Notes: generated by a model from the letters alone, not told the origin. Shown: positions 8,699 through 40,592, counted from the first letter of the stretch. The stretch: 64,000 nt of DNA from a virus (IMGVR_UViG_3300030376_007544:32001-96000); one strand, 5' to 3'. Program-made: numbers and translations.

Positions 8699-8847
8699 TC
8701 GCAGAGGAGGCGCCCCTCGCAAGAGGGGCAACTCTTCACTACATAGAACACCTAGACAACCCTAGAGCGTTCAGAGTCCCCTAGAGGGCTAGAATACCTC
8801 TCTGAAATATAGAGGGGGGAGGGGAACCTGGGCGCTTTTATCTAACT

Positions 8848-8890
8848 TTGTGAAAACTTTCACAAACTTACTTTGTGAAAACTTTCACAA
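8848..8890. promoter_or_regulatory. two tandem Rex-type operators TTGTGAA-N4-TTCACAA
   Basis: Perfect copies at 8848-8865 and 8873-8890; others at 7819, 12662, 18479. Confidence 0.75.
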
Positions 8891-8896
8891 ACTTTT

Positions 8897-9119
8897 GTTA
8901 AGTTTGCTTAACTTTGTTCGTGAAGTTCGCCTAACTCGATAAGTTAAGTTTGCTTAACTTTGTTAGTTAAGTTCGCCTAACTTTTTCTGTTAAGTTTGCC
9001 TAACATAAAATGTTAAGTTTGCTTAACATAAAATGTTAAGTCAGCCTAACAAAAAATGTTAGCTTAGCCTAACATCAAATGTTAGCTTAGCCTAACATCG
9101 AATGTGAGGCATGCCTAAC
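8897..9119. repeat. ten copies of GTTAR-N6-YTAAC at an exact 23-bp period (DtxR/MntR-box-like)
   Basis: Starts at 8897, 8920, 8943, 8966, 8989, 9012, 9035, 9058, 9081, 9104. Confidence 0.9.
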
Positions 9120-9626
9120 ACCCAAATTTCGCCAGTTTCGCCTAAGCGCTGGAATCCTACGGTCAAGCTTTTTAGGATTTTTTGAAAAAAAAATTGAAAA
9201 AAATTTGAAAAAAAAATTGAAAACATTTAACATTCAACACACAAAGGAACCTTATACCTAGTAAAGAACTAAAACAATTACCAAACCAAACCACATATAC
9301 CCAGTGCCACAGTAGACCAACATCACTAACATGACACGTTGGAACTACGCAACAGTACCTAAACTGATACTAAATGATCACTACTCCAACTCAACTAAGT
9401 TAAAAAAACATTGAGGAACTGCACCCGAAGTAAGCAACTCGCTAGCTTTCTCCCAGAAAACTAGGGGATTACACTCATCAACCATGTACATAACTGCAAT
9501 CAAACGTTCCATTATATCCATGAACATACTGTATCGCAACCCTTTCCCCAAAAATCCTCCAATTCCTGCTACAATAGTTCAACAAATACTTGACACTTCA
9601 AACGGGACTATATAAGATAGATAAAC

Positions 9627-9785
9627 ATGAACGAAAACAACGACGACCACGCTACAGAAGCTTCGCCAGTTACTGCGCCTAGACTGTCACGCTATACTTG
9701 TCATAAGTGTGATGTATCACTAGAGGCACTAACAGAGTCTGATGTTTGGTGTGGAAAAGGACATCGCATGGAGAGGATAGGCTAA
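9627..9785 (+). CDS. small Zn-ribbon protein (52 aa)
   Basis: CHKC...CGKGH; TTGACA-17-TAAGAT promoter at 9590-9618. Confidence 0.6.
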   Translation: MNENNDDHATEASPVTAPRLSRYTCHKCDVSLEALTESDVWCGKGHRMERIG

Positions 9786-9786
9786 A

Positions 9787-9930
9787 GTGGCTAGAAGAAA
9801 CGCATCGTTTGGAGCAGGAACTATCAGCAAAACCCAGCGTAAACGCAAAGGGATACACGCAAAGAGTAAGCACTCCAAACTCAAAGGTTCCAAGAACTAT
9901 AAGAAAAAGTACAGAGGACAGGGAAGATAG
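9787..9930 (+). CDS. small, highly basic protein ending KKYRGQGR (47 aa)
   Basis: GTG start two bases after the previous stop; K/R-rich. Confidence 0.6.
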   Translation: MARRNASFGAGTISKTQRKRKGIHAKSKHSKLKGSKNYKKKYRGQGR

Positions 9931-9937
9931 TTAGGCC

Positions 9938-10035
9938 CGAACAAACGTTCGCCAATGTTAAGCACGCCTAACATTTGATGTTAGCTTAACCTAACACATC
10001 GAACAAACGTTCGCCACATACCGAACAAATGTTCG
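9938..10035. promoter_or_regulatory. three LexA (SOS)-type boxes with a DtxR-like pair between them
   Basis: CGAAC-N4-GTTCG at 9938, 10000, 10022; GTTAR-N6-YTAAC at 9957 and 9980. Confidence 0.75.
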
Positions 10036-10174
10036 CCCATGTTCGTCACATTTTTGCTCGTTTTGCGAAGCCACCCGAATCCTACGGTCAACCTACGGTC
10101 AGCATAAAACAGAAAAACCCCACACCCGAAAGAAAAAGAAAAGGTGTGGGGTTAGACTGGAAAGAAAGGTACTT

Positions 10175-10438
10175 TTAAGGTAGCACCAACCTCTGTCCTA
10201 TTTGAAGATATGAACCTCCATTGAGTTCGCTTGCTTGATAGACTGCGTGTCCAGTATGACCTTCGCAGTGTTCATTTATTATGTCCCAGAGAGTGTCGCC
10301 ACTTTCAACTGTCACTTCACCGGATTGGCACTTGTAGTCAATTGCGTCATTTGCGCCCTTGACTATCCCTATTCCCAGTCCAGCAGTGATAGCAATTGCG
10401 CCTATCCCTCCAAGAGCTTTTTTAGTTAATGTGTTCAT
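10175..10438 (-). CDS. membrane-anchored LysM-domain protein, leaderless
   Basis: N-terminal TM helix; VESGDTLWDI...LQIGQRLVLP; ATG 7 nt after TAAGGT. Confidence 0.85.
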   Translation of the reverse strand: MNTLTKKALGGIGAIAITAGLGIGIVKGANDAIDYKCQSGEVTVESGDTLWDIINEHCEGHTGHAVYQASELNGGSYLQIGQRLVLP

Positions 10439-10554
10439 AGGTATAACCTTAACACACTCCATGTCACATTGCAACACTTCTCAACAAAAAATAAAAAAAT
10501 AATTTCTTAGGTAAAAGGTTGCGTTCATGTTGCAACTCTGCTAACATGGTATTC

Positions 10555-10701
10555 ATGAGTTACAGATACGACATAAAACACGACTGGTACACTGATAAGT
10601 GGAACGTCGTTGATACTCGTAACAGAGACTGCACAGTCTCCACACATAGTTCTAGGGAAGAAGCACTAGCCGAAGCGCTAAAAAAGGATAGTTCTTCTTA
10701 A
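10555..10701 (+). CDS. small hypothetical protein, leaderless
   Basis: TTGCGT-17-TAACAT, ATG 7 nt downstream. Confidence 0.65.
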   Translation: MSYRYDIKHDWYTDKWNVVDTRNRDCTVSTHSSREEALAEALKKDSSS

Positions 10702-11286
10702 CTAAGGGGGATGCTGAGGCTACCCCCCTAAATCTTAGCCCCACTTCTGGTTTCACTCATTTCCCAGAGGTGGGGCTTTCTTCGTGTACCCCCAACATTC
10801 ACCCAAAGCTCAACACGAACATATGTTCGCATCGAGGTCAGGTCAGGCCGAGCAGGTCGAGAGGCCGATGTGTCCCGATTACATCGGGGCTTTATCAGAC
10901 CTAAGCTTAGCTCGAAGCTTAGCTTGACCAGCTCGAAGCTTAGCTGGATGCAGGAAAAGTTTGCCAAAAGGTTGCATTTTGAATCGTTTTGCGCTAAACT
11001 TCAGCAAACCCTACGGTCAGCCTACGGTCAAACCTGGGAAAAATCAACAAAAGCCAACGAAAAGTTGCAATTTTGTCCAGCTTTGCAGCAGCTTAGCAGC
11101 AGCTTAACCAGCTTAGCAGCAGCTCGGATGCAGCGATTCGAGGTCAACCTCGTGAAGTCCCGACTATATCGGGACGATATGACCTCACTTATTGGCCATC
11201 TCGCACTTGCATCCATATAAGCTCGCATACCAGGAAGAAACCCCAGACTAGGGAAATGAGTAAAACCTAGTCTGGGGTTATGAACT

Positions 11287-11379
11287 TTAGTGTCCTAAAA
11301 CATTTAGGACTGCTAAAGTTAGAAATAGGATTCCGAACATCCAATACATCGGAACCATTTCTTTTGAATACCAACTCAT
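11287..11379 (-). CDS. 30-aa membrane peptide
   Basis: MSWYSKEMVPMYWMFGILFLTLAVLNVLGH; GGGAG RBS; own promoter and terminator. Confidence 0.65.
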   Translation of the reverse strand: MSWYSKEMVPMYWMFGILFLTLAVLNVLGH

Positions 11380-11459
11380 CTTTATCTCCCTTCGTTGATA
11401 CTTCATCTTATCAAACTCACAACTAATTGCAACCTTTAATTAAAATTATTTATTATTTA

Positions 11460-11732
11460 TTACCACTCACGCCAACTTCTGCCCCAACGTGGAGATGTTG
11501 ATCGTAAGTAGGTTGCGAGTTCAGGGTACTTCTCTTCTATAGCGCTAGGCAAGTAAACGTGCACTAGCAGATCAAGCGTCCTAACGAACCTACAGGGAGA
11601 ACCAAACCAAAACCTACTTCGTGGTTTCATTTCGTTCTTGATGTAGGCACGAACCCTATTGTGATCTATGTCCCAATAATCAACGCCAACTTTATCTGCG
11701 AAGATTCGTAGTCCTATGTAGTAGTTGTTCAT
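11460..11732 (-). CDS. hypothetical protein, paralogue of 27108-27389, leaderless
   Basis: Shared DYWDIDH, SRFWFGSPC, LRSTSPRWGR. Confidence 0.8.
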   Translation of the reverse strand: MNNYYIGLRIFADKVGVDYWDIDHNRVRAYIKNEMKPRSRFWFGSPCRFVRTLDLLVHVYLPSAIEEKYPELATYLRSTSPRWGRSWREW

Positions 11733-12374
11733 ATGTATGAGTATAGGTTGTCTACAACTATATTGCAAGTTTTATCTAAGAAATTGTTTGATATTATTAG
11801 CTCCACCTAACATGCCCGAATGTTAGGCTTGCTTAACATTGAGTGTAAGTTTAACATAACACAGGTCAGGTCAGGTCAGGTCGAGCAGCAACAGGCCAAA
11901 TCGAGGTCAAGATGTCCCGAATATATCGGGACTAATCGAGAGCTTAGCAGCTTAGCAGCAGCTCGAAGCTTAGCTCGATCCCAGCTCAGCCGAAGCTGGA
12001 AAACCCTACGGTCAGCCTTTTTTTGCTAAAATGTTGCAAAACGAAAGGCTTTGTGATATAATGGAATCAACTTTTGCCCATCCTAGCACAAACTTTGGCG
12101 AAGACCATCCCAAATCCAGCTCGACGCAGCAACTTTGATCGACTCGACTCAGTGAGTCCCGACTATAACGGGGGTCTACTAGGTCGATTTGACCAGCTTT
12201 GGCCCTTATCGCCACATCCCGTATACCAGGAAGAGATCCCAAATTAGATAAGGAAATAAAACTAATTTGGGATCAACTCCGTAAATTTATTGTGTCACTC
12301 ACTTCTTGAGTGTGAGGGATTTATGTTGCCACGATCCCTACTCGCCGAATCTGATTCAGATGGTTTAGTTACGC

Positions 12375-12565
12375 TTAAGCCTGAACTGTGTCGAGCCATG
12401 CCTGCGCTTCCTCGTGCGTCTTAAACCCCATTAGGATTTTTGACGCTTCTGGATAAAGCGCGTGGAAGGCTGATGGTTCATTGCTCTCAGGTCCCCATAG
12501 CCGAAGCCATCGAGCACTGTAGCGAACTACGCCTGTCTCTATATGATCACCCCATTTCCACTCAT
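12375..12565 (-). pseudogene. small gene with an apparent frameshift at its start
   Basis: The leaderless ATG at 12565 is out of frame with the ~62-codon ORF that ends at 12375. Confidence 0.35.
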
Positions 12566-12641
12566 GTATCCAGGTTATCACGAAATTTCGCAAAACCACC
12601 CGGTTTTTTAAAAAAATTTAAATTTGCCACATTATGGGAAA

Positions 12642-12787
12642 TGAGAATGATTCTCAAAAGTTTGTGAAATGTTTCACTAAGTGACCGAACATTTGTTCCC
12701 CCGAACACTTGTTCCCCCCGAACATATGTTCCCCGAACACTTGTTCGTGTTAAGCATGCCTAACATTGAGTGTTAGCTTAACATAAC
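12642..12787. promoter_or_regulatory. stacked operators: Fur-like, Rex-like, 4x LexA-like, 2x DtxR-like
   Basis: TGAGAATGATTCTCA 12642; TTGTGAAATGTTTCACTA 12662; CGAAC-N4-GTTC at 12686, 12702, 12719, 12734; GTTAR-N6-HTAAC at 12749, 12772. Confidence 0.75.
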
Positions 12788-13354
12788 AAAATAAAAAAAA
12801 TAAAAAAATTTCAAGAAAAGGTTGTTTTTTTTGAAAGGCTGCACAAAAAATCGACAGGTCAAAATCGACCTCAGCGTGTCCCGAATATATCGGGGGTCTA
12901 CCAGGTCGCTGGAAACGCTACGGTCAAGCTACGGCCAAGCTTTCGAGCTGAAAAGGTTGCGAAAGCAAAAAACTTCTGCTAAAATGAAAAGAAATCTTCA
13001 AAAGTTTAGCGAAAGCCTGGGGAAAAACAACCAAAAGCGGCAAAAAGTTGAAAAAAAGCAGCTTCGCAGCGCAGCTTCGGGTCATCCAGCAGCCACATCC
13101 CGCATAAGTCCCGACTATATCGGGGGCCTCTAAGGTCCACGTATCCTGGATCGGATCATCCTTTTCACGAGCTTCACTCAGTGTGTTCATGTGACTACTT
13201 TTTAGTCTGGATCCCGATTTCACTCAGCGTGTTCATATGACTACTTTTTATTCTGGATCCAGAATCGTATTCATGGGATTTCCCACAATGTGGTTAATTT
13301 TGAAACTTTGGTAAAAAAGTTTCGAATGTCACAGGCATTAGATAGATTGAATAC

Positions 13355-13657
13355 ATGGAAAAGAAACAAGGGAAGGAAGGTGAAAAAATGAGAACTCTTG
13401 AGAACGGAGCAACCGCTCTTGTGTGGAGTGTGCAACACAATGCTGAAGGCAGTGGGTATCGCAACTACACAGGCGTTGTTCTGGCTCATGCGCCCCATCT
13501 GATGGATCCATATGCAACATGGACTGTCGCTTCAGATGATGGGATCACGTTCTGGTGTAATGCAGGGCATTACTACTCCAGTCGTGAAGATGCACATCAA
13601 GACTTCGTAGTGCGTGCCACTAACGAAACAGACTTGATGTCTCACGCAGTAGCCTAA
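13355..13657 (+). CDS. hypothetical phage protein
   Basis: Own promoter; PYATW...GHY motif; alternative start at 13388. Confidence 0.7.
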   Translation: MEKKQGKEGEKMRTLENGATALVWSVQHNAEGSGYRNYTGVVLAHAPHLMDPYATWTVASDDGITFWCNAGHYYSSREDAHQDFVVRATNETDLMSHAVA

Positions 13658-13773
13658 AGCGAGTCAGACTCGGAGCCTGATGGGGGCTTGGCAACAGAAC
13701 CCCATCACCCCAACAACTTGATAAGGAAGGAAAAAGATCCCCCACTCCCTAAGGTGGGGGATTTTTATTTACC

Positions 13774-13875
13774 CCAGATCCAGATCCAGATCCAGATCCA
13801 GATCCGAGCCTGATCCTGATCCGAGTCAGATCCAGATCCAGATCCAGATTGGAGTCAGATCCAGATCCAGATCCA
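13774..13875. repeat. (CCAGAT)n microsatellite containing 13 GATC
   Basis: Read directly from sequence. Confidence 0.9.
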
Positions 13876-14165
13876 TCCCCGAAACTCTTTCAAACTGGGC
13901 AACTTTGGAAATCGCTACGGTCAAGCTCCGGTCAAACTTTTTGCATCCTTCTGATCCGCCCTCGATCCAACCCTGCAACCTGGAATACCCCCGATTATAT
14001 CGGGACTTTCTGAGAAGTCGAGGGTCTAAAGCTGCATCCGAGCTGCATCCGAGCTGGAGCTTAGCTACTGCGTGAGTCCCGTTATATTCGGGACTATACG
14101 ATAGGTTTTGACCTGACCTGACCTGCTGCTCGACCTGACCTGACCTGATGACCATCCCCCGAACT

Positions 14166-14324
14166 AAGTTACTCAGTGGTAACTTGTGTTAGGCACGCTT
14201 AACACTAAATGTTAGGTGAACTTAACATATGTTAGGTATGCTTAACATTCAATGTTAGGCACGCTTAACATACTCCCCGAATAATGTTAGCTTCACCTAA
14301 CACTCAATGTTAGGGCTACTTAAC
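14166..14324. repeat. one GTTAC-N6-GTAAC plus six GTTAG-N6-YTAAC boxes in three 23-bp pairs
   Basis: 14188/14211, 14231/14254, 14286/14309. Confidence 0.85.
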
Positions 14325-14392
14325 GAAATAAATAATCTAAAGAATTCATCAAAAACACCCGGAGTGTCACACATAGATGATAGATTGAACTT

Positions 14393-14704
14393 ATGAGTAG
14401 TTTGGAGGTGAAAGAAAATATGAGTCATGTACTTCTGATTGAAGGCGCTGATGGCGATTTAGTTGATGCACATACAGTGTGTAGCGACAGTTGTCACCGG
14501 AGCCTAGCAGTAGAGTTAGACGTGCCCTATGGAGGGTGGTTCGGTTGTATCGAACTGGAGTTTAACGACTACTGTCAGTCTTGTGGGACGCTGATTCATG
14601 GGGTTGAAGGACCCCATGAGTTCCATAACACTGTATGTGAAGATACCACTTGTGAACTTTGTTCTGATGAACGTAAGTTGCAACTGGAACTCGCTACAGT
14701 TTAA
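14393..14704 (+). CDS. Cys/His-rich putative metal-binding protein
   Basis: CSDSC, CQSC, CxxxxCxxC; alternative start at 14420 after GGAGG. Confidence 0.7.
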   Translation: MSSLEVKENMSHVLLIEGADGDLVDAHTVCSDSCHRSLAVELDVPYGGWFGCIELEFNDYCQSCGTLIHGVEGPHEFHNTVCEDTTCELCSDERKLQLELATV

Positions 14705-15514
14705 GGCTTCAATCCAATCCTGAATAAGATTCGGACTCACACCCCTAGAGTTGGCACCAGAATAGGGGCAACACAAACAACAACACATTCAACGAAACAT
14801 TGAAATACAACTAAACAACTCATGGATATTCCCCGATTTACTTAGGTGAGTCGGGGAACTTTCCTGGAATCCGAGAAAGCTCGGAATTGCTACGGTCAAG
14901 TTATTCTGGTCAAACTGCAGCCAATCATCCGAACTCAAGCAGCCAATCGATTCGAACTCAAAAAGCCCCGTATATATCGGGACTAAATAAGAAGCTGAAT
15001 GAAATCGTGAGCTTAGCTGCTGCTGCGAGCTGAGCTTAGCCGCTAAAAAGTGACGAAAAGTGACGAAAGTGACGAAAAGTTCGAAACTTTTTTACCATCC
15101 TATCAAAAGTTTTTGAAAATTGCAACTTTTTGCCGAAAAACCAGGGAGCTTAGCCGCTGAATCAGCCGCTACACGCTGCAAATCGAAGTCGATTCAGCAG
15201 GTAAGTCCCGTAATAATCGGGACATATTAAGGTTGGCCTGACCTGACCTGCCATCCCAGCAGCCATCCAAGTGTTAGGTATGCTTAACACGAAATGTTAG
15301 GTACGCTTAACATTAGAACCGAACAAGTGTTCGTTTATGTCATTTATGTTACAGAAAAAGAAATTTAAGAAAATCTTGCGTAAAACTTGCAATTGTCACA
15401 CCCACCACCTAAGATGGTGTTTACATAGATGAGGCACCTGCCAAGTAGGTGAAGAGTCTGGGTAAGAGTCCCAGAAGGTGCCACATTGTAAACACCTATA
15501 GGAAAGAAAAACAT

Positions 15515-15760
15515 ATGCTTACACGTATGCATTTCGACACTGTAGCGAATAGCTTAAGGCTTAGGCTTGAAGCACTTATTGACAACCTCAATAGAGCGCC
15601 TCAAATCCACATGGAAGCCGTTAAGGTATGGCACGCAATCGCTTGCGATATGCGCACCATGTTCGCTGGAAGTAACCCTAGATTTGATGAAGAAAAGTTT
15701 AACGACGCTTCTGGAATCACTTCAGTGGAATACTTTCTCCCCAGTGTCAAAACCGACTAA
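15515..15760 (+). CDS. hypothetical phage protein
   Basis: LTRxHF...NPRFDxxKF motif; promoter and structured leader upstream. Confidence 0.7.
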   Translation: MLTRMHFDTVANSLRLRLEALIDNLNRAPQIHMEAVKVWHAIACDMRTMFAGSNPRFDEEKFNDASGITSVEYFLPSVKTD

Positions 15761-16067
15761 GAGTCGGAGTCCGGCGGAACTCGGCAACAGAATCCGCCCA
15801 AATAAATAGCCAACCTAAACAAATACTCCGCTGAAAGGGCGGGGTATTTGCCTGGAATCGAGAAAGTTCGAAAACCCTACGGTCAAGCTACGGTCAAGCT
15901 TTTGAGCTGGTCGGCAGGTCAAAACTCAAGTCGATCCCAATCAGTCCCGAATATAACTGGACTATCTAACCGTTCTTTTGTTTAATTCGAGCTTAAGGAC
16001 CACCCAGGCAAAGGTTCCCGACTTGTCTGACGGGAACCTTTTTTAATCCGGTATTTAGTTTGGAACC

Positions 16068-16160
16068 TTATCGCTTTTTGGGCGGTATACAACTTTTCAG
16101 TATGTAAAACCACACCATAGCAAATCCTACTGGACCTACTAGAGCAAATACAATTTCCAT
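16068..16160 (-). CDS. 30-aa membrane peptide
   Basis: MEIVFALVGPVGFAMVWFYILKSCIPPKKR; own promoter and terminator. Confidence 0.6.
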   Translation of the reverse strand: MEIVFALVGPVGFAMVWFYILKSCIPPKKR

Positions 16161-16302
16161 GTATTTCTTTCTGAGTGATTAAGTACTTCTTAACCTCTCA
16201 CCTTCAATACTAGGTGCAAATATCATAAATTGCAACCTTAAAACAAAAAAAATAAAAAATAACCCCTGATCCGAAGATCAAGGGCTACTTTTGTTATTAG
16301 TT

Positions 16303-16566
16303 TTAGCCTATTCCTGCGAACTTATTAAATTCAGCCTCTTCAGCGATTGTTAGTTCTCTAGGTTGTTGGTTGTGGATTTCTAACCCCCACATTGTTCGGT
16401 GCATATGCTCAATCTCTTTAGCCTGTCTGTAGTCTTTACAAAACAGTTGTAGTATTTGACAATCAGTTTGATCGCCAGTTGGAGATTGAAACCATAAGTG
16501 TAGAGCATTATCTCTTACTTCGGTTCCGCATAAAGCTCCCTTTGTTGTTATTGTTGGTTCTATCAT
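16303..16566 (-). CDS. hypothetical protein
   Basis: Promoter, RBS and terminator bracket the ORF. Confidence 0.7.
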   Translation of the reverse strand: MIEPTITTKGALCGTEVRDNALHLWFQSPTGDQTDCQILQLFCKDYRQAKEIEHMHRTMWGLEIHNQQPRELTIAEEAEFNKFAGIG

Positions 16567-16706
16567 GTATTCCCATCTAATCCGTTAGTACTTCTAACTT
16601 CATAACTTAATCGTATCATGACCCGAAACAGATTGCAACCCCAATAGCAAAAAATTATCTAAAATAATTCTTGCTTTTGTCACACACCTATGTTAAGGTA
16701 ATAAAC

Positions 16707-16859
16707 ATGATAAACAAACTAAAAGACAACGGACATAAGTGGAAGGCACTTGATGGAGATGTTCGGTGTGTTGTGTGTGATGCACGGCCATCGGGAGCAT
16801 CTGCCAAAAAGTTGTGCATACGCTTTGATCTGGAGAGAATGCAAGGCTCTAAAATATGA
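16707..16859 (+). CDS. small Cys/His protein, leaderless
   Basis: TTGCTT-17-TAAGGT then ATG; H...CxxC...C. Confidence 0.6.
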   Translation: MINKLKDNGHKWKALDGDVRCVVCDARPSGASAKKLCIRFDLERMQGSKI

Positions 16860-16957
16860 TTACAATTCTAGTCACATTTGGAGTTGGAGTGATAGTTGGA
16901 ATACTTATCGCAACTTACTTAGAGCATGGGGCAATACTTTTGCCCGATGACGAGTAG
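16856..16957 (+). CDS. 33-aa membrane peptide
   Basis: ATGA overlap with the upstream stop; MITILVTFGVGVIVGILIATYL... Confidence 0.6.
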   Translation: MITILVTFGVGVIVGILIATYLEHGAILLPDDE

Positions 16958-16989
16958 CAAACTCTACGGTCAGACTATTTCGCAAAAAG

Positions 16990-17207
16990 ATTGAGTGTCC
17001 TGACGGGTACATAAGGACCAACGGCAGTTGGCGGTATTGTTGGGGTGTGGTAGGAATACTGCACTAAAGCGACACACTCTAGGGAATCGAGCCTACTTTC
17101 GGGGACAGATAGCAATATGTCCAGTCCGATAGGGCTAGCCGTACCAAGCGGTTGAGTACTCCTTAATCCCTAACCCCACCTTCGTGCTGAGGGTGGGGTA
17201 TTCTTTT
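16990..17207 (+). ncRNA. candidate structured RNA
   Basis: No ORF, GC-richer, several stems, ends in an intrinsic terminator. Confidence 0.35.
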
Positions 17208-17229
17208 ACCCCACCCCCTACGGTCAGCA

Positions 17230-17481
17230 CTACCGTCGGTTGTAGCGCCTTCGGTTAAACGCCCGACATGTACGGCAGTTAGTCGCCAACTTCTCTTCGC
17301 CCTGATAGACGTAAGTGAATTGCTCCACTTTCAACCATTGACGACAAGTGCGACATATGTACATCTCGCCCTTCGCAGCTCGTTTAATGGCTTCAAGATC
17401 AGTGTGGTCGTGGTTGTCTTCCATGACACTGGCACGATCCATTCTTGCCTTTAACTTAGTCGCTTGAAAACGATCTTTCAT
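17230..17481 (-). CDS. Zn-finger protein
   Basis: Two CRTC motifs; GGAGGTG RBS. Confidence 0.7.
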   Translation of the reverse strand: MKDRFQATKLKARMDRASVMEDNHDHTDLEAIKRAAKGEMYICRTCRQWLKVEQFTYVYQGEEKLATNCRTCRAFNRRRYNRR

Positions 17482-17678
17482 AATTCACCTCCTTAGGTAA
17501 TTTGTCTTACACTACATATAGGCACCAAAGTCGTAAAAAGCGGACATAAAAATAAAAATAATTTATTTTGCTTAAAGGGTTGCATTCGGGCCACAAAGAT
17601 GCTACGCTGGTAATTACCAAGTTGGAAGTACCAATTTGGCTCAAGTCGGAAGTACTGACTTGATTAAGGAGATATTCG

Positions 17679-17822
17679 ATGCAAAGAGAATTGAACTGCA
17701 AATGTGTTAGATGTGACAAATTGTACACAACTAGCAAACTAGCAGGAATAGATCGCAAAGGTTTCTGCATTAACTGTTGGCAACACCAACGAAATATATG
17801 GAGACTCGTAAGATCAACATAA
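17679..17822 (+). CDS. 47-aa Zn-finger protein
   Basis: CVRC...CINC; AAGGAG RBS. Confidence 0.65.
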   Translation: MQRELNCKCVRCDKLYTTSKLAGIDRKGFCINCWQHQRNIWRLVRST

Positions 17823-18084
17823 ACATAAACTAAAACATAAAGTTTCGTGAAGAAGTTTTCTCATTTTCCTTCTTCATGAAACATTCCCAAAAAGACCCAC
17901 ACTTTTTCATTTTCTTTCGAGTGTGGGTCTTTTTCTGTCCAGCTACATAATACAAAATCAAAAAAATACTAAGAGTTGTATTTATATCGGGACTTTCTTA
18001 CTTACCCTTCCTTCTATTACACCTCTATGGTGTCCCTATGGTGTCCCTACCCAGGCAGAAGGGGAGCCGAAGCCCCCCTCCAAA

Positions 18085-18279
18085 TTAAGACGCTTTTTTA
18101 GCGTTGAGTTTTTTGAAGTAAGGAGTGACATCATCAACCACTTTTTCACCGTAGTGAATTTCAGTGGCGATTACCATGTCTCCACAGTCCCTTATTTCTT
18201 GGGCTTTTTCTTCGAGCTCATATTCACATACGATTTCCGAAGTGCCTTCGTTATAAGCAATTAATAAGAATTCTCTCAT
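18085..18279 (-). CDS. hypothetical protein
   Basis: RBS, promoter and terminator bracket the ORF. Confidence 0.6.
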   Translation of the reverse strand: MREFLLIAYNEGTSEIVCEYELEEKAQEIRDCGDMVIATEIHYGEKVVDDVTPYFKKLNAKKAS

Positions 18280-18730
18280 TGTTTTCTTTCTATCTGATTG
18301 AGACTCTCTCAACCCGATAACTTAACTCTAACAGGGTTTGAGAAAAAACACAACCTTTTTTCAAAAAAAAATAAAATAATTTTTTCCTCTATTTTGTTAG
18401 GTATGCTTAACATCAAATGTTAGCTACGCCTAACACTTTTACTGGTCGAGTGGCCTGAAATTGAAAAATCAAGCTGACTTTGTGAAACTTTTCACAAACT
18501 ATCGAGGAGTTTGTCGATATTTGGCCTCAAAAAGTCCCGATTATATCGGGGGCCTCTGAGGTCGAAAACTCTACGGTCAGCTCACGGTCAGCTTGCCCGC
18601 CCACCCGTAAAGTCCCGTATATATCGGGGCTTAAAGACCTCGAAACTCGAACGGCCACTCAAAAGCTCGTATACCAGGCGAAATCCACCGCACTCATAAT
18701 GCGGTGGAAGCCTCCTTCGGTTAAGAAGTT

Positions 18731-19111
18731 TTACCGTCTTGGTTGTGTAACTTTGACGGAAGAAACTTCTTTGATGTTGATCGCTTTACCAACAAGATCG
18801 CTATCTAGCCACCCTGCTTCAACCGCACCGTCAATAAGTTTCATCTCACCGACTCGCTTGGTAACACGTTGGTGTTGCCCTTGCGGAAGAATCGCTTTCA
18901 GAACATCGTTGTCAATAGATCGTCTGTTTTGATTCACTATTGCAACTTTCGTTCCGTCTGCGAGGGTTACGCTTTCAACTTCTAACGCTCGGAAAGCAAG
19001 TTCTGCTTCCTCAACCGCTTCCCTTGCTTCTGCAAGAGCGCTCCGTGCTTCCACGACTCGCTGTGCGGTTAGTTCGCTGATCTTGCGATCATTCACTAAT
19101 AAAGTATCCAT
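18731..19111 (-). CDS. hypothetical protein, paralogue of 25023-25406
   Basis: Near-identical VESVTLADGTKVAIV...LPQGQHQRVTKRVG. Confidence 0.85.
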   Translation of the reverse strand: MDTLLVNDRKISELTAQRVVEARSALAEAREAVEEAELAFRALEVESVTLADGTKVAIVNQNRRSIDNDVLKAILPQGQHQRVTKRVGEMKLIDGAVEAGWLDSDLVGKAINIKEVSSVKVTQPRR

Positions 19112-19656
19112 GTCGGACCCTTTCTCTAATTCAGAAGCCTATCTGGGACTCTCACCCTGACTCTTCACCTAATGGCTAGACTCCTGTTTTCTTTGATATA
19201 TCCAGGTTACCATCGTTGTGAGACAAAACCACCCGGTTTTTCAAAAAAATTTCAAATAATTTTTTTCGTAACATAAATGACATATTTGTTAAGTTCGCCT
19301 AACAGGCCATGTTCACGCTTGCGAACAGATTATGTTAAGTGCACCTAACAAACGATGTTAAGCAGAGCTAACAAATAAAAAAATAAAAAAAATAAAAAAA
19401 ACTTGACAAAAGGTTGTTTTTGTGAAAGCAGCGTGCAGGTCAAAATCGAGGTCAGTATGTCCCGATTATTACGGGACTCTCTTCCTTCTATTAAGCCTCT
19501 ATGGTGTCCCTACCGCATGACCTGCAGCAGCGCTGACCAGTACCCGCCCAGGAAGAAGCCCTAGCAGGAAAATGAGTGAAACCTGCTAGGGCTTTCGGAC
19601 ATCGCATCAGTAGTTAGCAAAACTAGGTTACTAATCAGTAGTGCGATCCTCCGATT

Positions 19657-19794
19657 TTATGAGGAGAGATGTTTCGCTAGTTTGGGGTGCTCCCTTAGCG
19701 TCTTCTCTCTTACTTCACGCTCATGATGCCTGTGCATCGTTTTGGCGAGCGTAGCGTATAAGAGCGCTCCTATTATGTAAAGTGCTAATGTCAT
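19657..19794 (-). CDS. 45-aa membrane-anchored peptide
   Basis: MTLALYIIGALLYATLAK...; GAAAGG RBS; own promoter. Confidence 0.6.
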   Translation of the reverse strand: MTLALYIIGALLYATLAKTMHRHHEREVREKTLREHPKLAKHLSS

Positions 19795-20016
19795 TGTTTA
19801 CCTTTCGTTTTAACGACAAGTACCACCGTATCAAAGATTCAACTACATTGCAACACCGAAAAGCTAAAAAATTAAATAATTATTTTTACGCTAAATACTT
19901 GCAATTGTCTCACGGGCCCTGTAGCATGGAATGTATAAAGAAAAGCGAGTAGTCCGCCGTAAGGACTGGTTCGAGTGAAAGCCTCGAAGGACTGCTCCCA
20001 AGTAGAAAGGTAAAGC

Positions 20017-20352
20017 ATGAAACTAATCACTGCTGATCAACGTAAACGGCTTCTGGCAAACCACGAAGCCAATCTCGAAGGAGAAGGAGGGATCGACCAC
20101 AAACCTGTAGTGAAAATATTCACGGCAGGGGCAGGGGCGACATGGTTGCTTACAGAGATGGACGAAGATGGAATCTTCTTCGGCCTATGTGATCTTGGTC
20201 TGGGGTTTCCAGAACTAGGTTATGTCTCTCAAAGTGAATTTGATTCACTTCCTGCAAATATGTTCCTCGAACGTGATGCATGGTTTACGGCTACGAAAAC
20301 CCTTAGCGAGTACGCTTCGGAAGCCCGTGGCCTGCGACGAATCGCTGCTTAA
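20017..20352 (+). CDS. DUF2958-family protein
   Basis: PVVKIF...ATWLLTE...FGLCDLGLGFPELGYVS...ERD. Confidence 0.85.
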   Translation: MKLITADQRKRLLANHEANLEGEGGIDHKPVVKIFTAGAGATWLLTEMDEDGIFFGLCDLGLGFPELGYVSQSEFDSLPANMFLERDAWFTATKTLSEYASEARGLRRIAA

Positions 20353-20523
20353 TCGGATGCCTCCGGCCTTCTGGTCGGGGGTATTTCCCTGGGTGGCCAT
20401 AAATAAAAATCGACTACCCGTGAAGTCCCGATATAGTCGGGGCATCCTGACCTCGACCTGACCTGACCTGACCAACCAGGAAAAATCCCCCAACACTTTC
20501 GTGCTGAGGGATGAACCTACACG

Positions 20524-20658
20524 TTATCCGTGACAGAGATCATGCATGTGGCGGAGATCTTCGTCCCAATCCCACATCATCTCCATAAGGTCTTCCTTAC
20601 TCATGAGTGGTTCTGCTTCGACCCACTCTCCGTCTTCATTTCTGGTCCATTCAGTCAT
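20524..20658 (-). CDS. 44-aa acidic, Trp-rich peptide
   Basis: GGAG RBS; own promoter and terminator. Confidence 0.6.
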   Translation of the reverse strand: MTEWTRNEDGEWVEAEPLMSKEDLMEMMWDWDEDLRHMHDLCHG

Positions 20659-20992
20659 TTTATCTCCGATCTGAATCTACAAGCTTCCACTTTGAAGGCC
20701 TGATATATCCAGATTACCATGACCACTTCATAATTGCAACCCCAAATAAAAATTAATTAATATTTTTAGCAGCCGTTGAAAATAGCAGCCACTGAAAATG
20801 CAGCAGCAGGTCAGGTCGAGTGCAGGTCAGATCAAACACAGGTCAGGTCTGGTCAGGTCTGGTCACCCCGTAAAGCCCCGATTTATACGGGGCTAAATAA
20901 GTAAGACCACTCAGGATTTCTCCCCCTCACTCTAGGCCACCCGTAGGTGGCGAGGCCCGTTGGTCTACGGGGTGGTCTACTTACTTCGACAA

Positions 20993-21142
20993 TTAGACGA
21001 TTTCGATTTCGAATTCGCCGTTGTCGTACTTCTTGTCGCATCCGTTTCCTCGAAAGCTTCCACAGAAGACTAATCCTTCTTCGGTTGCTATCGCATCGAG
21101 TGACGAGCAGAAGATTCCACAATTATCACATTTTACTGGCAT
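20993..21142 (-). CDS. small Zn-finger protein
   Basis: CDNC...C...C; GAAAGGA RBS. Confidence 0.65.
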   Translation of the reverse strand: MPVKCDNCGIFCSSLDAIATEEGLVFCGSFRGNGCDKKYDNGEFEIEIV

Positions 21143-21392
21143 ACTGAATTCCTTTCGGTAGTTAATTATTTCAGTACTTCCAGGATACCACCGTTTGACC
21201 AGCATTGCAACATCAAATGCAAAAAAAAAGAATTTTAATTTCTTTGCAAAAACCGGGTGGTTTTGTCTCATAGTCGTGGTATCGTTCTATTTGTTGGTAA
21301 AGTACCGACATTACATACTAGCCGTAATTCTCGAATGAGTGGAAAGCCCCTGACAGTAGAAGCCTGTAGGTTCGAGTGGGAAAGGAATAGAA

Positions 21393-21761
21393 ATGTTTAC
21401 ACGAACAGATAGTGTTTGTATAGATATTAGTCAAGACGGACAAGTGCCTGTTCTAGGTTACGCTTATTCGTTCTCGAAAGCTCGTGACGAGTGGTTTGGC
21501 TACGTCGCTGTCAGAGAGGGTATGCTCTCTTCTGAAATGCGATACGTAGTTAAACAAATGCACCGTATCACGAAGTACGGAGAGGACGTATGGGAAGTAA
21601 TCGAAGGAACTACTGTCGAAGGTACCGATCCTGTAGAATCAGGAATACGGAACAACCGACAAAGTGCACTCGTTACACTGTCGAAATTGTCTTTAGATTT
21701 ATTTCGGGGTAACGACTATGTTGATTACGGAACCGTAATGAACATCCCACCACTTGGCTAA
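21393..21761 (+). CDS. hypothetical protein
   Basis: RBS, promoter and terminator. Confidence 0.7.
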   Translation: MFTRTDSVCIDISQDGQVPVLGYAYSFSKARDEWFGYVAVREGMLSSEMRYVVKQMHRITKYGEDVWEVIEGTTVEGTDPVESGIRNNRQSALVTLSKLSLDLFRGNDYVDYGTVMNIPPLG

Positions 21762-21977
21762 CCGAAGGGAATCCACCGAACTAAACACTCGGTGGATTTT
21801 GCCTGGTATGCGAGATTTTGTCAATTTCTGACCAGCAGGTCAGGTCATGCAGCAGGTCAGGTCAGGTCGAAGGTCGAGTAGTCCCGTATCTATCGGGACT
21901 CTTCTCCTTCTATTAGACTGCTATGGTGTCCCTATGGCGTACCTACGCTATGCAGCTCGCCCCAACCCCAACCAGGC

Positions 21978-22251
21978 GAAAAGCCCACCGAACTTCGGTG
22001 GATCGGTTCTTCACTCTCTACTTGCGAAGGGTATCTTGTTTGCCATTTAGGTTCGCCCTCCACCTTGCAAGGTTTTTGAGGAGTCCGCACCGTACCTTTC
22101 GGTTCTTTTGATGGTTTCCGTTTCCACTTCTGGTAGGTTTTTTGGTAAAAAGAACCTCTTTCCACGAAGTTCGGTGGGCCCTTAGTTGCAACCCAACCGA
22201 ATGGATATTCAGTTGTCAATTCGGGGTTTCCCCCTGCCACCCTTTCGGGCT
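21978..22251 (-). ncRNA. candidate structured ncRNA, about 275 nt
   Basis: TTGCTT-17-TAAGAT promoter; GNRA-capped stems; terminator; only an 11-codon ORF has an RBS. Confidence 0.55.
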
Positions 22252-22647
22252 ACGCCCATCTTAACATAAGGGTGAGACAAAAGCAACCTTTGTCCAACAA
22301 TTTCTTAAATAATTTTTTATTCCCAGTAGCGGCAAAATAGCGGCAAAATAGCAGCGAAAATCTGTCGTTTTTGAAAGTTTTTGACAAAAAACGGGAGACC
22401 AGCGGGCAGGCCAGTAGAAAATTTGGCAAAACTAATCAAAAATGACAGTTTTTGCTCAGCTCAGGCAGAGCTAAAAGGAGCAAAAGATGAAGGAGGTCAG
22501 GTCAAAGTTTACCTGAGGTCTAATAGCCCCGACTATATCGGGACCCGGTTAGGTATGCTTAACTCTTTTTGTTAGGTTGGCTTAACATCACTCTAAAAGG
22601 ACATGCAGAAACCCCGACCCTTTCGGGCCGGAGTTCGCTGCTGGGAT

Positions 22648-27107: not shown

Positions 27108-27389
27108 ATGAATAAATTAAACAACTACCAAATAGGCATCATGATGCTGGCAAACAAGATAGGAATTGACTACTGGGACATAGATCATGGAAGGATTCGC
27201 AAGTTCATTAAGAGCGAAACGAAACCTTGCAGTAGGTTCTGGTTCGGCTCCCCTTGTAAGTTTATTAGAAGACTGGACCTGCTGGTCCACGTTTACCTAC
27301 CAAGTTCTATTGAGGAAAAGTATCCTGAATTAGCTTTTTACTTACGTTCTACTTCTCCAAGATGGGGAAGAAATTGGCGTAATTGGTAA
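27108..27389 (+). CDS. hypothetical protein, paralogue of 11460-11732
   Basis: Shared motifs; leaderless start. Confidence 0.8.
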   Translation: MNKLNNYQIGIMMLANKIGIDYWDIDHGRIRKFIKSETKPCSRFWFGSPCKFIRRLDLLVHVYLPSSIEEKYPELAFYLRSTSPRWGRNWRNW

Positions 27390-27470
27390 AAATCTTAAAT
27401 AAGACTTGACAAGCCAGAAAACTTGTGCTAATAATTGTATTAACAACGAACAGGATCAAGGAGGTCCAAA

Positions 27471-39659: not shown

Positions 39660-40592
39660 TTAAAAGTCAGGGTTTTCTTCACTAAATACCCATGCGATAC
39701 CAGAAGAGGGGTGCCGAAGCCTAGCAATTGCTTTTGCTTCTAACTGGCGTATACGCTCACGAGTTAAACCCATTACTTCACCTATCTCCTGTAGAGTCAT
39801 AGGGTTGCCTATATTGCTTAATCCGTGGTGCATTGTGAGTACTTGGAACTCACGCTCTGGTAGAATGGATAGTGCTTTTAGAATATCTTGGGCAAAACTT
39901 TGTCTAATACCAAGCTCATCAACCTCAATCTGGTTTGGATCTGCTAACGTATCCGCATGAGAAACATAACTATCATCAGAAAGGGGTATGTCTAACGACT
40001 CTAAACGAGTGTTTTCCATATGTGACCAGATATCATCAAACTTATCGGTATCCCAATCTAAATACTCTGCTAATTCGTGTCGAGAATACTCCCCTGCGCC
40101 GTATGTAGACTCAAACTCCTCAAGGGTTGCCGCCAACTTGCGCACATCTGCTTCTACATGCATAGGAAGGCGTATGGCACGACCAGCATTAGCGATTGCT
40201 CTTTGGCAGGCTTGGCGACACCACCACGTGGCGTATGTTGAGAACTTGAAACCTTTATCGGGATCAAACTTATCTACAGCACGCATCAAGCCAATTGTTG
40301 CTTCTTGAATTAGATCTTCGTACTCCATACGAGACTGCGAACGAGCGTACTTTGCTGCCGTGTCCATTGCTAGTCGTAAATTATGCTCAACAAAGTTATC
40401 TTTGGCACGTTGTCCTTCACGAACTGCCGCATTTAATGCTCTTCTTTCGGGAAACTCTAAAGTTATTCCCTCAATAAAACAAGTATTTAACTTTTTTGAG
40501 GCCTTTTGCCCTTCTATTACAGCCCTGCCCAGAACAATTTCTTCTTCTCTGGTAAGTATTCTATGTTTAGAACTATTAACGTAACCAGCCAT
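39660..40592 (-). CDS. RpoD/SigA-like sigma70 factor lacking region 1.1
   Basis: LTREEE, NLRL, DLIQE, GFKFSTYATWW, TRERIRQLE..LRHP. Confidence 0.93.
   Translation of the reverse strand: MAGYVNSSKHRILTREEEIVLGRAVIEGQKASKKLNTCFIEGITLEFPERRALNAAVREGQRAKDNFVEHNLRLAMDTAAKYARSQSRMEYEDLIQEATIGLMRAVDKFDPDKGFKFSTYATWWCRQACQRAIANAGRAIRLPMHVEADVRKLAATLEEFESTYGAGEYSRHELAEYLDWDTDKFDDIWSHMENTRLESLDIPLSDDSYVSHADTLADPNQIEVDELGIRQSFAQDILKALSILPEREFQVLTMHHGLSNIGNPMTLQEIGEVMGLTRERIRQLEAKAIARLRHPSSGIAWVFSEENPDF

Follow-up and report, generated by a model that had tools for sequence, protein, structure and literature searches.

A strictly polar, 11-bp-phased motif at about 1-kb intervals in a small-gene array of a metagenomic phage: a candidate cassette-boundary element

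The small-gene array and its polar motif

In a stretch of 64,000 nucleotides from a phage (IMGVR_UViG_3300030376_007544:32001-96000, hereafter the window), we analyzed a short motif, CTACGGTCA, which recurs on one strand within an array of small genes. It covers bases 32001-96000 of an IMG/VR phage contig of 128,360 bp, which is classed as a linear sequence with 87% completeness. The array is ~14 kb long (window about 8.8-22.6 kb) and contains small open reading frames (ORFs) of ~45-125 amino acids on both strands, mostly without a family match; according to our gene calls, ~64% of the region 9157-18571 is non-coding. The flanking genes, including DUF2958, DUF1281_C, DUF932, and DNA methyltransferases, look like an early or anti-defence neighbourhood. 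The phage further encodes DNA polymerase A, SNF2 helicase, baseplate J, and tailspike domains, as well as ThyX, two DNA methyltransferases, a sigma factor, and a full RecA (E 1e-135). Its GC content is ~42%, and since two WhiB-like proteins are encoded (G000:C1:68906-69097 and 15660-15833), the host is probably actinobacterial. The best cultured matches of the DNA polymerase are from Streptomyces and Thermobifida phages (43% identical), no close cultured relative was found, and a megablast search of the array against 50,697 phage records gave no match. The stretch is present in marine and aquatic metagenomes from 11 studies dated 2014-2025.

In total, 14 exact copies of CTACGGTCA were identified between window positions 9157 and 18579, all on the + strand, compared with a mean of 0.23 and a maximum of 1 in dinucleotide-preserving shuffles. 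A first-pass annotation, made from the sequence of the window alone, had listed these positions with no reverse-complement copy, and had proposed a genome-wide strand count as a check. Both the list and the polarity are borne out: over the whole contig, the count stays at 14 forward and 0 reverse copies, with none in the other 119 kb, and the motif-bearing span of 9.4 kb makes up ~7% of the phage genome. The two-sided binomial probability of a 14:0 strand bias is 1.2e-4, or 1e-3 if the copies are counted as 11 loci. Variants with one mismatch are scattered over both strands at chance level outside the array, and inside it correspond to the second halves of doublets (see below).

The 11 loci are separated by 925, 929, 995, 912, 997, 975, 987, 1087, 254, and 1353 bp. 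For the first eight of these gaps, the range of 912-1087 bp given in the first-pass annotation was confirmed (mean 976 bp, SD 56, coefficient of variation (CV) 0.058), and eight consecutive gaps of 900-1100 bp were obtained in 0 of 200,000 random placements. Six loci carry a second copy at a distance of 11 bp. The first-pass annotation had listed all six as doubled exactly 11 bp apart. Three of the doublets are exact (10082/10093, 11011/11022, and 15877/15888) and three imperfect: the second copy has one mismatch at 12929 (CTACGGCCA) and at 13926 (CTCCGGTCA), and a one-base insertion at 18581 (CTCACGGTCA). In its usual form the extended element consists of GRAAAnC, CTACGGTCA, 2 nt, and CTACGGYCA. 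The first 9-mer and its GAAAnC context are kept in 20 of 20 distinct sites, a figure that is partly circular as sites were picked by an exact first copy. A literature search for the 9-mer returned primers only. The same arrangement is present over 8.5-13.7 kb, at 99.6-99.9% identity, in three independent metagenome contigs (L083, L085, and L088), and the array is therefore not an assembly artefact.

Each of eight consecutive cassettes contains one motif locus, whatever the number or strand of its genes. Coding DNA accounts for 225-584 bp and non-coding DNA for 475-741 bp per cassette, and as the two vary inversely, the total stays near 1 kb (912-1087 bp). This compensation supports an earlier remark that filler repeats may maintain the spacing. 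The cassettes have only short motifs of 17-47 nt in common, with no long homology, and are thus not recent duplicates. Every mapped repeat family is confined to the array zone. The families include an 18-bp palindrome (TGTTARG-N4-CYTAACA) that is often phased at 23 bp, CGAAC-N4-GTTCG boxes, TTGTGAAA-N-TTTCACAA boxes, a 19-bp palindrome, and the microsatellites AGCTTAGC, GGTCAG, and CAGATC; AAAGGTTGCA-type promoter-like sites are also present. Sub-modules composed of an operator, a GGTCAG repeat, and a palindrome occur in both orientations, whereas the CTACGGTCA element and the AGCTTAGC repeats never flip.

Conservation and cassette junctions in related contigs

A metagenome-wide scan with the exact doublet yielded many unrelated tandem arrays and four informative variants or relatives, namely L101, a variant 96-98% identical to the window, L105 and L140, with genes 75-82% identical, and L139, with genes 75-85% identical. 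The motif is kept in all four, in the same orientation relative to syntenic genes and at gaps of 738-989 bp. In a three-way alignment with L105 and L139, coding DNA is 75% and non-coding DNA 53% identical, and the doublets appear as perfect islands of 18 and 9+12 nt beside terminators, promoters, and palindromes. Such perfect islands amid non-coding DNA of low identity indicate that the motif is under purifying selection. The lengths of syntenic cassettes are 925 bp in the window versus 876 bp in the relatives, 929 versus 839 bp, and 995 versus 749 or 859 bp. The first-pass annotation had suggested asking whether relatives keep the spacing while cargo genes change; motif and orientation are indeed kept as the cargo changes, but the exact spacing is not, differing by 49-246 bp, and neither helical phase nor exact distance is therefore maintained.

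The best resolved cassette junction is that of L101. This contig matches the window from 13438 to the 15877 doublet, continues with a 756-bp cassette and a second doublet, and then matches window 15856-16175 at 98%. In the base-resolved alignment, the first doublet copy of L101 has the same left flank as window 15877, and the second copy has the same right flank; only ~17-27 bp, the doublet itself, are common to both. The gene in the extra cassette is only 75% identical to 12375-12599, compared with 96-98% for the flanks. Because the shared core of 17-27 bp is shorter than assembler k-mers, chimeric junctions are unlikely. Assembled contigs from four sequencing runs were also compared and provided additional joints: an X7 contig, from a different study, has the same joint as L101, and an X11 contig joins 15890 to 10108, which gives the same left flank a third right-hand neighbour. 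In L105 and L140, a motif doublet comes after the gene that matches 11460-11793, and the sequence beyond it corresponds to 15923-15963; the cassettes located between 12006 and 15877 in the window are thus absent at that position in these relatives.

Several other matches were set aside. Two CTACGGTCA copies, 1029 bp apart, in G001, the nearest long relative (helicase 72% identical), were taken as chance occurrences, having no GAAAnC context and with one of them lying within another repeat. In IMG/VR, the exact-doublet scan returned one unrelated iteron-like contig (L028), the relaxed-doublet scan 12 further unrelated contigs in addition to L028, and a scan for the 19-bp palindrome 27 single, unrelated matches. 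Tandem 11-bp arrays of the same 9-mer in L093, L079, and the Ga0194135 set show no homology to the phage. Long tandem or palindromic arrays of 11-bp units, e.g., CACACTACGGT repeated ~40 times, were observed in L093 (7860-8340), L079 (7290-7390), L086, L124, L127, and L132; the unrelated 11-bp arrays probably surfaced through a search pattern that selects for them.

The motif copies and their immediate surroundings are summarized in Table 1.

Table 1. Window positions of the array, the CTACGGTCA loci, and the 19-bp palindrome
Feature	Position	Strand	Basis or remark
Repeat-rich small-gene cassette array holding the motif	8840..22600	.	Repeat mapping
Single copy with GGAATC upstream context, between the 10 x 23-bp palindrome array and an A-tract	9157..9165	+	Syntenic copy in L105 at 1171
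Exact doublet, 11-bp phased	10082..10101	+	18-nt island identical in L105 and L139
Exact doublet just downstream of a TTGCAT-N17-TAAACT promoter-like site	11011..11030	+	Exact match and sequence context
Single copy; a TTGCAA-N17-TATAAT promoter-like site (12034-12062) begins 28 bp past the motif start	12006..12014	+	
Doublet, second copy CTACGGCCA; followed by a TTGCGA-N17-TAAAAT site (12957-12985)	12918..12937	+	
Doublet, second copy CTCCGGTCA; preceded by a CAGATC microsatellite and by the + gene 13388-13657 with its terminator	13915..13934	+	
Single copy with a degenerate, shifted second copy CTGGTCAAAC	14890..14915	+	
Exact doublet, demonstrated cassette junction	15877..15896	+	Extra 756-bp cassette in L101
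Single copy, 14 bp past the stop of a + gene ending at 16950	16964..16972	+	
Single copy without GAAAnC upstream context, out of period; may not be a true member	17218..17226	+	
Doublet, second copy with 1-nt insertion; 19-bp palindrome on both sides	18571..18590	+	
19-bp palindrome GTCCCGA-N5-TCGGGAC, copies	10872..18630	.	Starts 10872, 11157, 11914, 12156, 12878, 13108, 13988, 14076, 14965, 15205, 15944, 18534, 18612

Other elements of the array

Promoter-like sites, identified partly by eye, are located beside the motif at 10971, 12034, and 12957, with a weaker one at 9205, and the arrangement of promoter and motif at 11011 is kept in L105 and L139, where inspection by eye gives TTGCAA-N17-TACAAT. 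The core itself is neither a promoter nor a hairpin. At seven loci, the motif is followed after 41-190 bp by the 19-bp palindrome, which has no T-run. Window 10872-22544 contains at least 18 copies of this palindrome, with about one or two in each cassette. Beyond the rightmost CTACGGTCA copy it continues to 22526 with a similar period of ~1 kb, the motif being absent. Strain-variant joints were also observed at this palindrome, e.g., 11934 to 14075 in X7.

The TGTTARG-N4-CYTAACA palindrome occurs in pairs in most spacers and is present in G001 too. Ten tandem copies at exactly 23 bp occupy window 8896-9130, followed by the 9157 motif copy and an A-tract carrying 11-bp-phased TTGAAAAAAA; the tandem block looks like an iteron array or origin, or else a massive operator array. 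Clusters of the CGAAC-N4-GTTCG box, the Gram-positive/actinobacterial LexA consensus, were seen at window 9939-10034, 10817, 12687-12746 (four in a row), and 15321, as well as at G000:C1:20547-21332. The Rex/CRP-like TTGTGAAA-N-TTTCACAA boxes at window 8849, 8874, 12663, and 18481 are conserved in L105, and the form TTGTGAA-N4-TTCACAA matches the Rex/CRP-like consensus. A Fur-like 7-1-7 box (TGAGAAT-G-ATTCTCA, window 12642-12656) is likewise conserved in L105.

Right after the stop of + genes, a two-hairpin element was identified at window 13660-13710, 14725-14775, and 15755-15800, with several further copies in L031 (reverse strand). Its second hairpin combines a conserved loop (..TGGCAACAGAA) with wholly different but complementary stems in at least six copies across two phages (G000 and G001), and the element is likely a structured RNA motif of the 3' untranslated region (3'UTR), with no match in Rfam. 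A search of the whole array against Rfam returned no family. Between the last two motif copies before 18571, window 16975-17210 (+) is gene-free; it ends in a strong intrinsic terminator (17173-17199) with a T-run, folds somewhat better than its shuffles (z -2.4), and is a candidate small RNA, also without a match in Rfam. In front of + small genes, TGTCACAC followed ~8 nt on by a TAnnnT hexamer was found at window 13327, 14365, 15394, and 16678, and many times in L031. As seen in G000 and G001, this combination may represent a phage-specific promoter class; a gene for a phage sigma factor is located at window 39660-40592. A paralogue of the cassette gene 11460-11793 (72-74% nucleotide identity) lies outside the array at window 27120-27402 with no motif beside it.

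A candidate cassette-boundary element and its alternatives

We put the chances at about even that CTACGGTCA is the conserved core of a boundary element of ~1-kb cassettes, where recombination adds, removes, and reorders cassettes. Exchange between directly repeated cores, within one genome or between co-infecting relatives, would insert, delete, or reorder whole cassettes, and a circle or donor segment with one core would integrate in a fixed polarity. Since all cores are direct repeats, such exchange would give insertions and deletions and not inversions, and the scaffold would stay polar. The orientation of a gene would then be a property of each cassette relative to its own core, and the ~1-kb period would be the length of a cassette, so that the model accounts for the polarity, the one-per-cassette pattern, and the period. 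The phage RecA could supply the exchange, or possibly a dedicated enzyme, and the core may also be bound by a protein. Homologous exchange would require neither the invariant first 9-mer nor the phasing by 11 bp, i.e., one helical turn; both suggest a protein that binds head-to-tail along a single DNA face. Such a protein might serve in synapsis or recombination, or else act as a regulator or insulator. The 74-residue product of 12375-12599 was considered as a candidate binder and dropped, as its match to Arm-DNA-bind_4 is weak (E 0.003, below the cut-off). It has almost no relatives, and its single-sequence fold is all-helical with low confidence (pLDDT 71).

A number of observations weigh against the boundary-element explanation. 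Only three or four rearrangements were seen, of which only L101 is at base resolution, and the divergence of L105 and L139 sets in ~35 nt rightward of the doublet. Some joints in the run contigs are located at the 19-bp palindrome or at TGTGAAA palindrome boxes, and CTACGGTCA is therefore not the sole crossover site. The 128-kb contig (87% complete) yielded no tyrosine or serine recombinase (PF00589, PF00239), RecT, or ERF, and a shared identity of 17-27 bp is short for a RecA-type exchange. Cassettes to the right of 18.6 kb are without the motif but have the 19-bp palindrome. G001 has an analogous array after the same helicase, with different, non-polar repeats, so that the polar motif is specific to a narrow clade. 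Lastly, the 11-bp phasing and the near-constant cassette length are not explained by recombination alone; a ruler-like constraint (looping, synapsis, or packaging geometry) may lie behind the latter.

Among known systems, the nearest counterparts are the PeSLs (promoter-early stem-loop cassettes) of T4-type phages (Arbiol et al. 2010, PMC2839356; Comeau et al. 2014, PMC4122927). PeSLs are conserved between genes, allow small ORFs to be shuffled as modules, and form mini-circles (PMC2839356). In both cases, a short conserved intergenic element is located between small non-essential ORFs of a hyperplastic region. A PeSL combines a sigma70-like early promoter with a terminator stem-loop; in the array, promoter-like sites and a palindrome lie beside the motif at some loci. 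Insertion, deletion, or replacement junctions between related phages also lie at the element here, as seen in L101 and supported by X7, X11, and L105/L140, with some breakpoints elsewhere. The present element differs from PeSLs in that its core is an 11-bp-phased direct repeat of a 9-mer rather than a promoter and terminator, in keeping one orientation though genes point both ways, in its very long spacers (~475-760 bp) and nearly constant cassette length, and in the probably actinobacterial host. The array also resembles the attC arrays of integrons, where a polar boundary site occurs once per ~1-kb cassette, gene orientation is a property of the cassette, and cassettes are gained, lost, and reordered at the site. 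However, neither IntI nor any other tyrosine or serine recombinase was detected in the contig, the site is a head-to-tail direct repeat and not an imperfect palindrome able to fold single-stranded, and the cassettes carry their own promoters and terminators. A more specific and rather doubtful proposal is that a lytic phage here possesses a dedicated platform for cassette recombination, integron-like but without a known integrase, with the doublet as its attachment site. A protein binding the 11-bp-phased 9-mers would then catalyze or direct excision and insertion of ~1-kb accessory cassettes, and the near-constant cassette length would reflect a physical ruler of the machinery (such as synapsis or loop size).

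Tandem direct repeats phased at 11 bp are the classic site architecture of winged-helix response regulators, and the motif could be purely an operator: a transcription factor bound there would control nearby promoters, or the array would act as a decoy that titrates it. A host response regulator of the OmpR/PhoB type or a phage regulator could be this factor, and the coincidence with junctions would be a by-product of conservation. The repeat spacing falls within the 10-11 bp expected of such sites (three exact and two near-exact doublets at 11 bp), copies are located at about -63 to -55 for the promoter-like sites 12034 and 12957 and at about +13 to +30 for the 10971 site, the latter arrangement being conserved in L105 and L139, and the same spacers hold palindromes matching the Gram-positive/actinobacterial LexA (CGAAC-N4-GTTCG) and Rex/CRP-like (TTGTGAA-N4-TTCACAA) consensus sites. 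Yet the motif has no consistent position with respect to promoters, no convincing promoter lies near at least five of the loci (10082, 13915, 15877, 16964, and 17218), and the promoter scan overall gave 21 sites versus 17.6 +/- 4.3 in shuffles, which is not above chance. Moreover, the orientation of the motif never follows the gene, no OmpR-type DNA-binding domain (Trans_reg_C) was found in the phage, and a count of the exact doublet across 185,579 species genomes gave 15 occurrences, against a rough chance estimate of ~17, with 0 actinobacterial occurrences and no enrichment in any sequenced taxon. We regard a purely regulatory function as unlikely, while noting that an operator is compatible with a cassette boundary, PeSLs being both regulatory and recombinogenic. 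The stoperators of cluster A mycobacteriophages (sites of L5 gp71) are asymmetric short sites repeated in intergenic actinophage DNA and act in an orientation-dependent manner. The present motif is likewise asymmetric, short, and repeated in intergenic DNA, but its copies are local and point the same way beside + and - genes, whereas stoperators are genome-wide and follow transcription.

The first-pass annotation had read the motif as a directional, evenly spaced signal for a DNA-tracking process, which could take the form of Chi-like attenuation of a host exonuclease that enters from a nearby genome end, of pausing during stepwise ejection or packaging, or of loop anchoring at ruler-like distances. 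Part of this description stands, as the motif is polar independently of the genes and evenly spaced, with a spacing CV of 0.058 and with coding and filler DNA compensating to a constant cassette length; the neighbours are early- or anti-defence-like (DNA methyltransferases, DUF932, DUF2958, and DUF1281_C), and the polarity matches that of the upstream + strand module. Chi and KOPS are also strand-polar short words, but they are single words of 5-8 nt, skewed along replichores genome-wide. Here, the conserved unit comprises 9 nt, flanks, and an 11-bp doublet, and all 14 copies lie within 9.4 kb of 128 kb, with none elsewhere in the contig, so the Chi/KOPS-like part of the reading fails. Syntenic spacing also shifts by 49-246 bp in the relatives. 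As weak evidence, contig depths in run X5 are 25 on the left flank versus 32-38 across and beyond the array, without a clear twofold step of a terminal repeat. A tracking signal is improbable in our judgement. The copies are ~1 kb apart, unlike an iteron origin with its tight cluster of direct repeats beside an AT-rich region and a rep gene, and only that at 9157 has a repeat array and an A-tract next to it.

A passive remnant of an ancestral ~1-kb tandem duplication, with no present function, would agree with the regular unit length and the common grammar across spacers. We find this very hard to credit: the cassettes have no long homology, and a motif kept perfectly in surrounding non-coding DNA of ~53% identity is an asymmetry that largely refutes it. 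Equally remote is a function in the RNA of + transcripts, where the motif would signal processing, antitermination, or the binding of a protein. The 11011 doublet is within ~30 nt of the predicted start of a conserved promoter, the motif comes after the terminator at + genes and would sit in read-through RNA, and its polarity matches the upstream + module; at 12006 and 12918, however, it lies upstream of the only nearby + promoter, no conserved pairing involves it, no Rfam family matches, and the 11-bp phasing points to double-stranded DNA.

Phage accessory genes, among them those for early functions, host takeover, and anti-defence, turn over fast, by a route that is understood in few model groups only. 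With its strictly polar, perfectly conserved junction motif and near-constant cassettes, the array is an unusually clean natural example, and whole-cassette differences at the motif distinguish natural variants found in several marine studies. A motif-bearing stretch that is ~64% non-coding and packed with operator-like palindromes is rare in phages. If a dedicated binder or recombinase exists, the array would represent a new platform for gene cassettes in phages whose marine hosts are probably actinobacteria.

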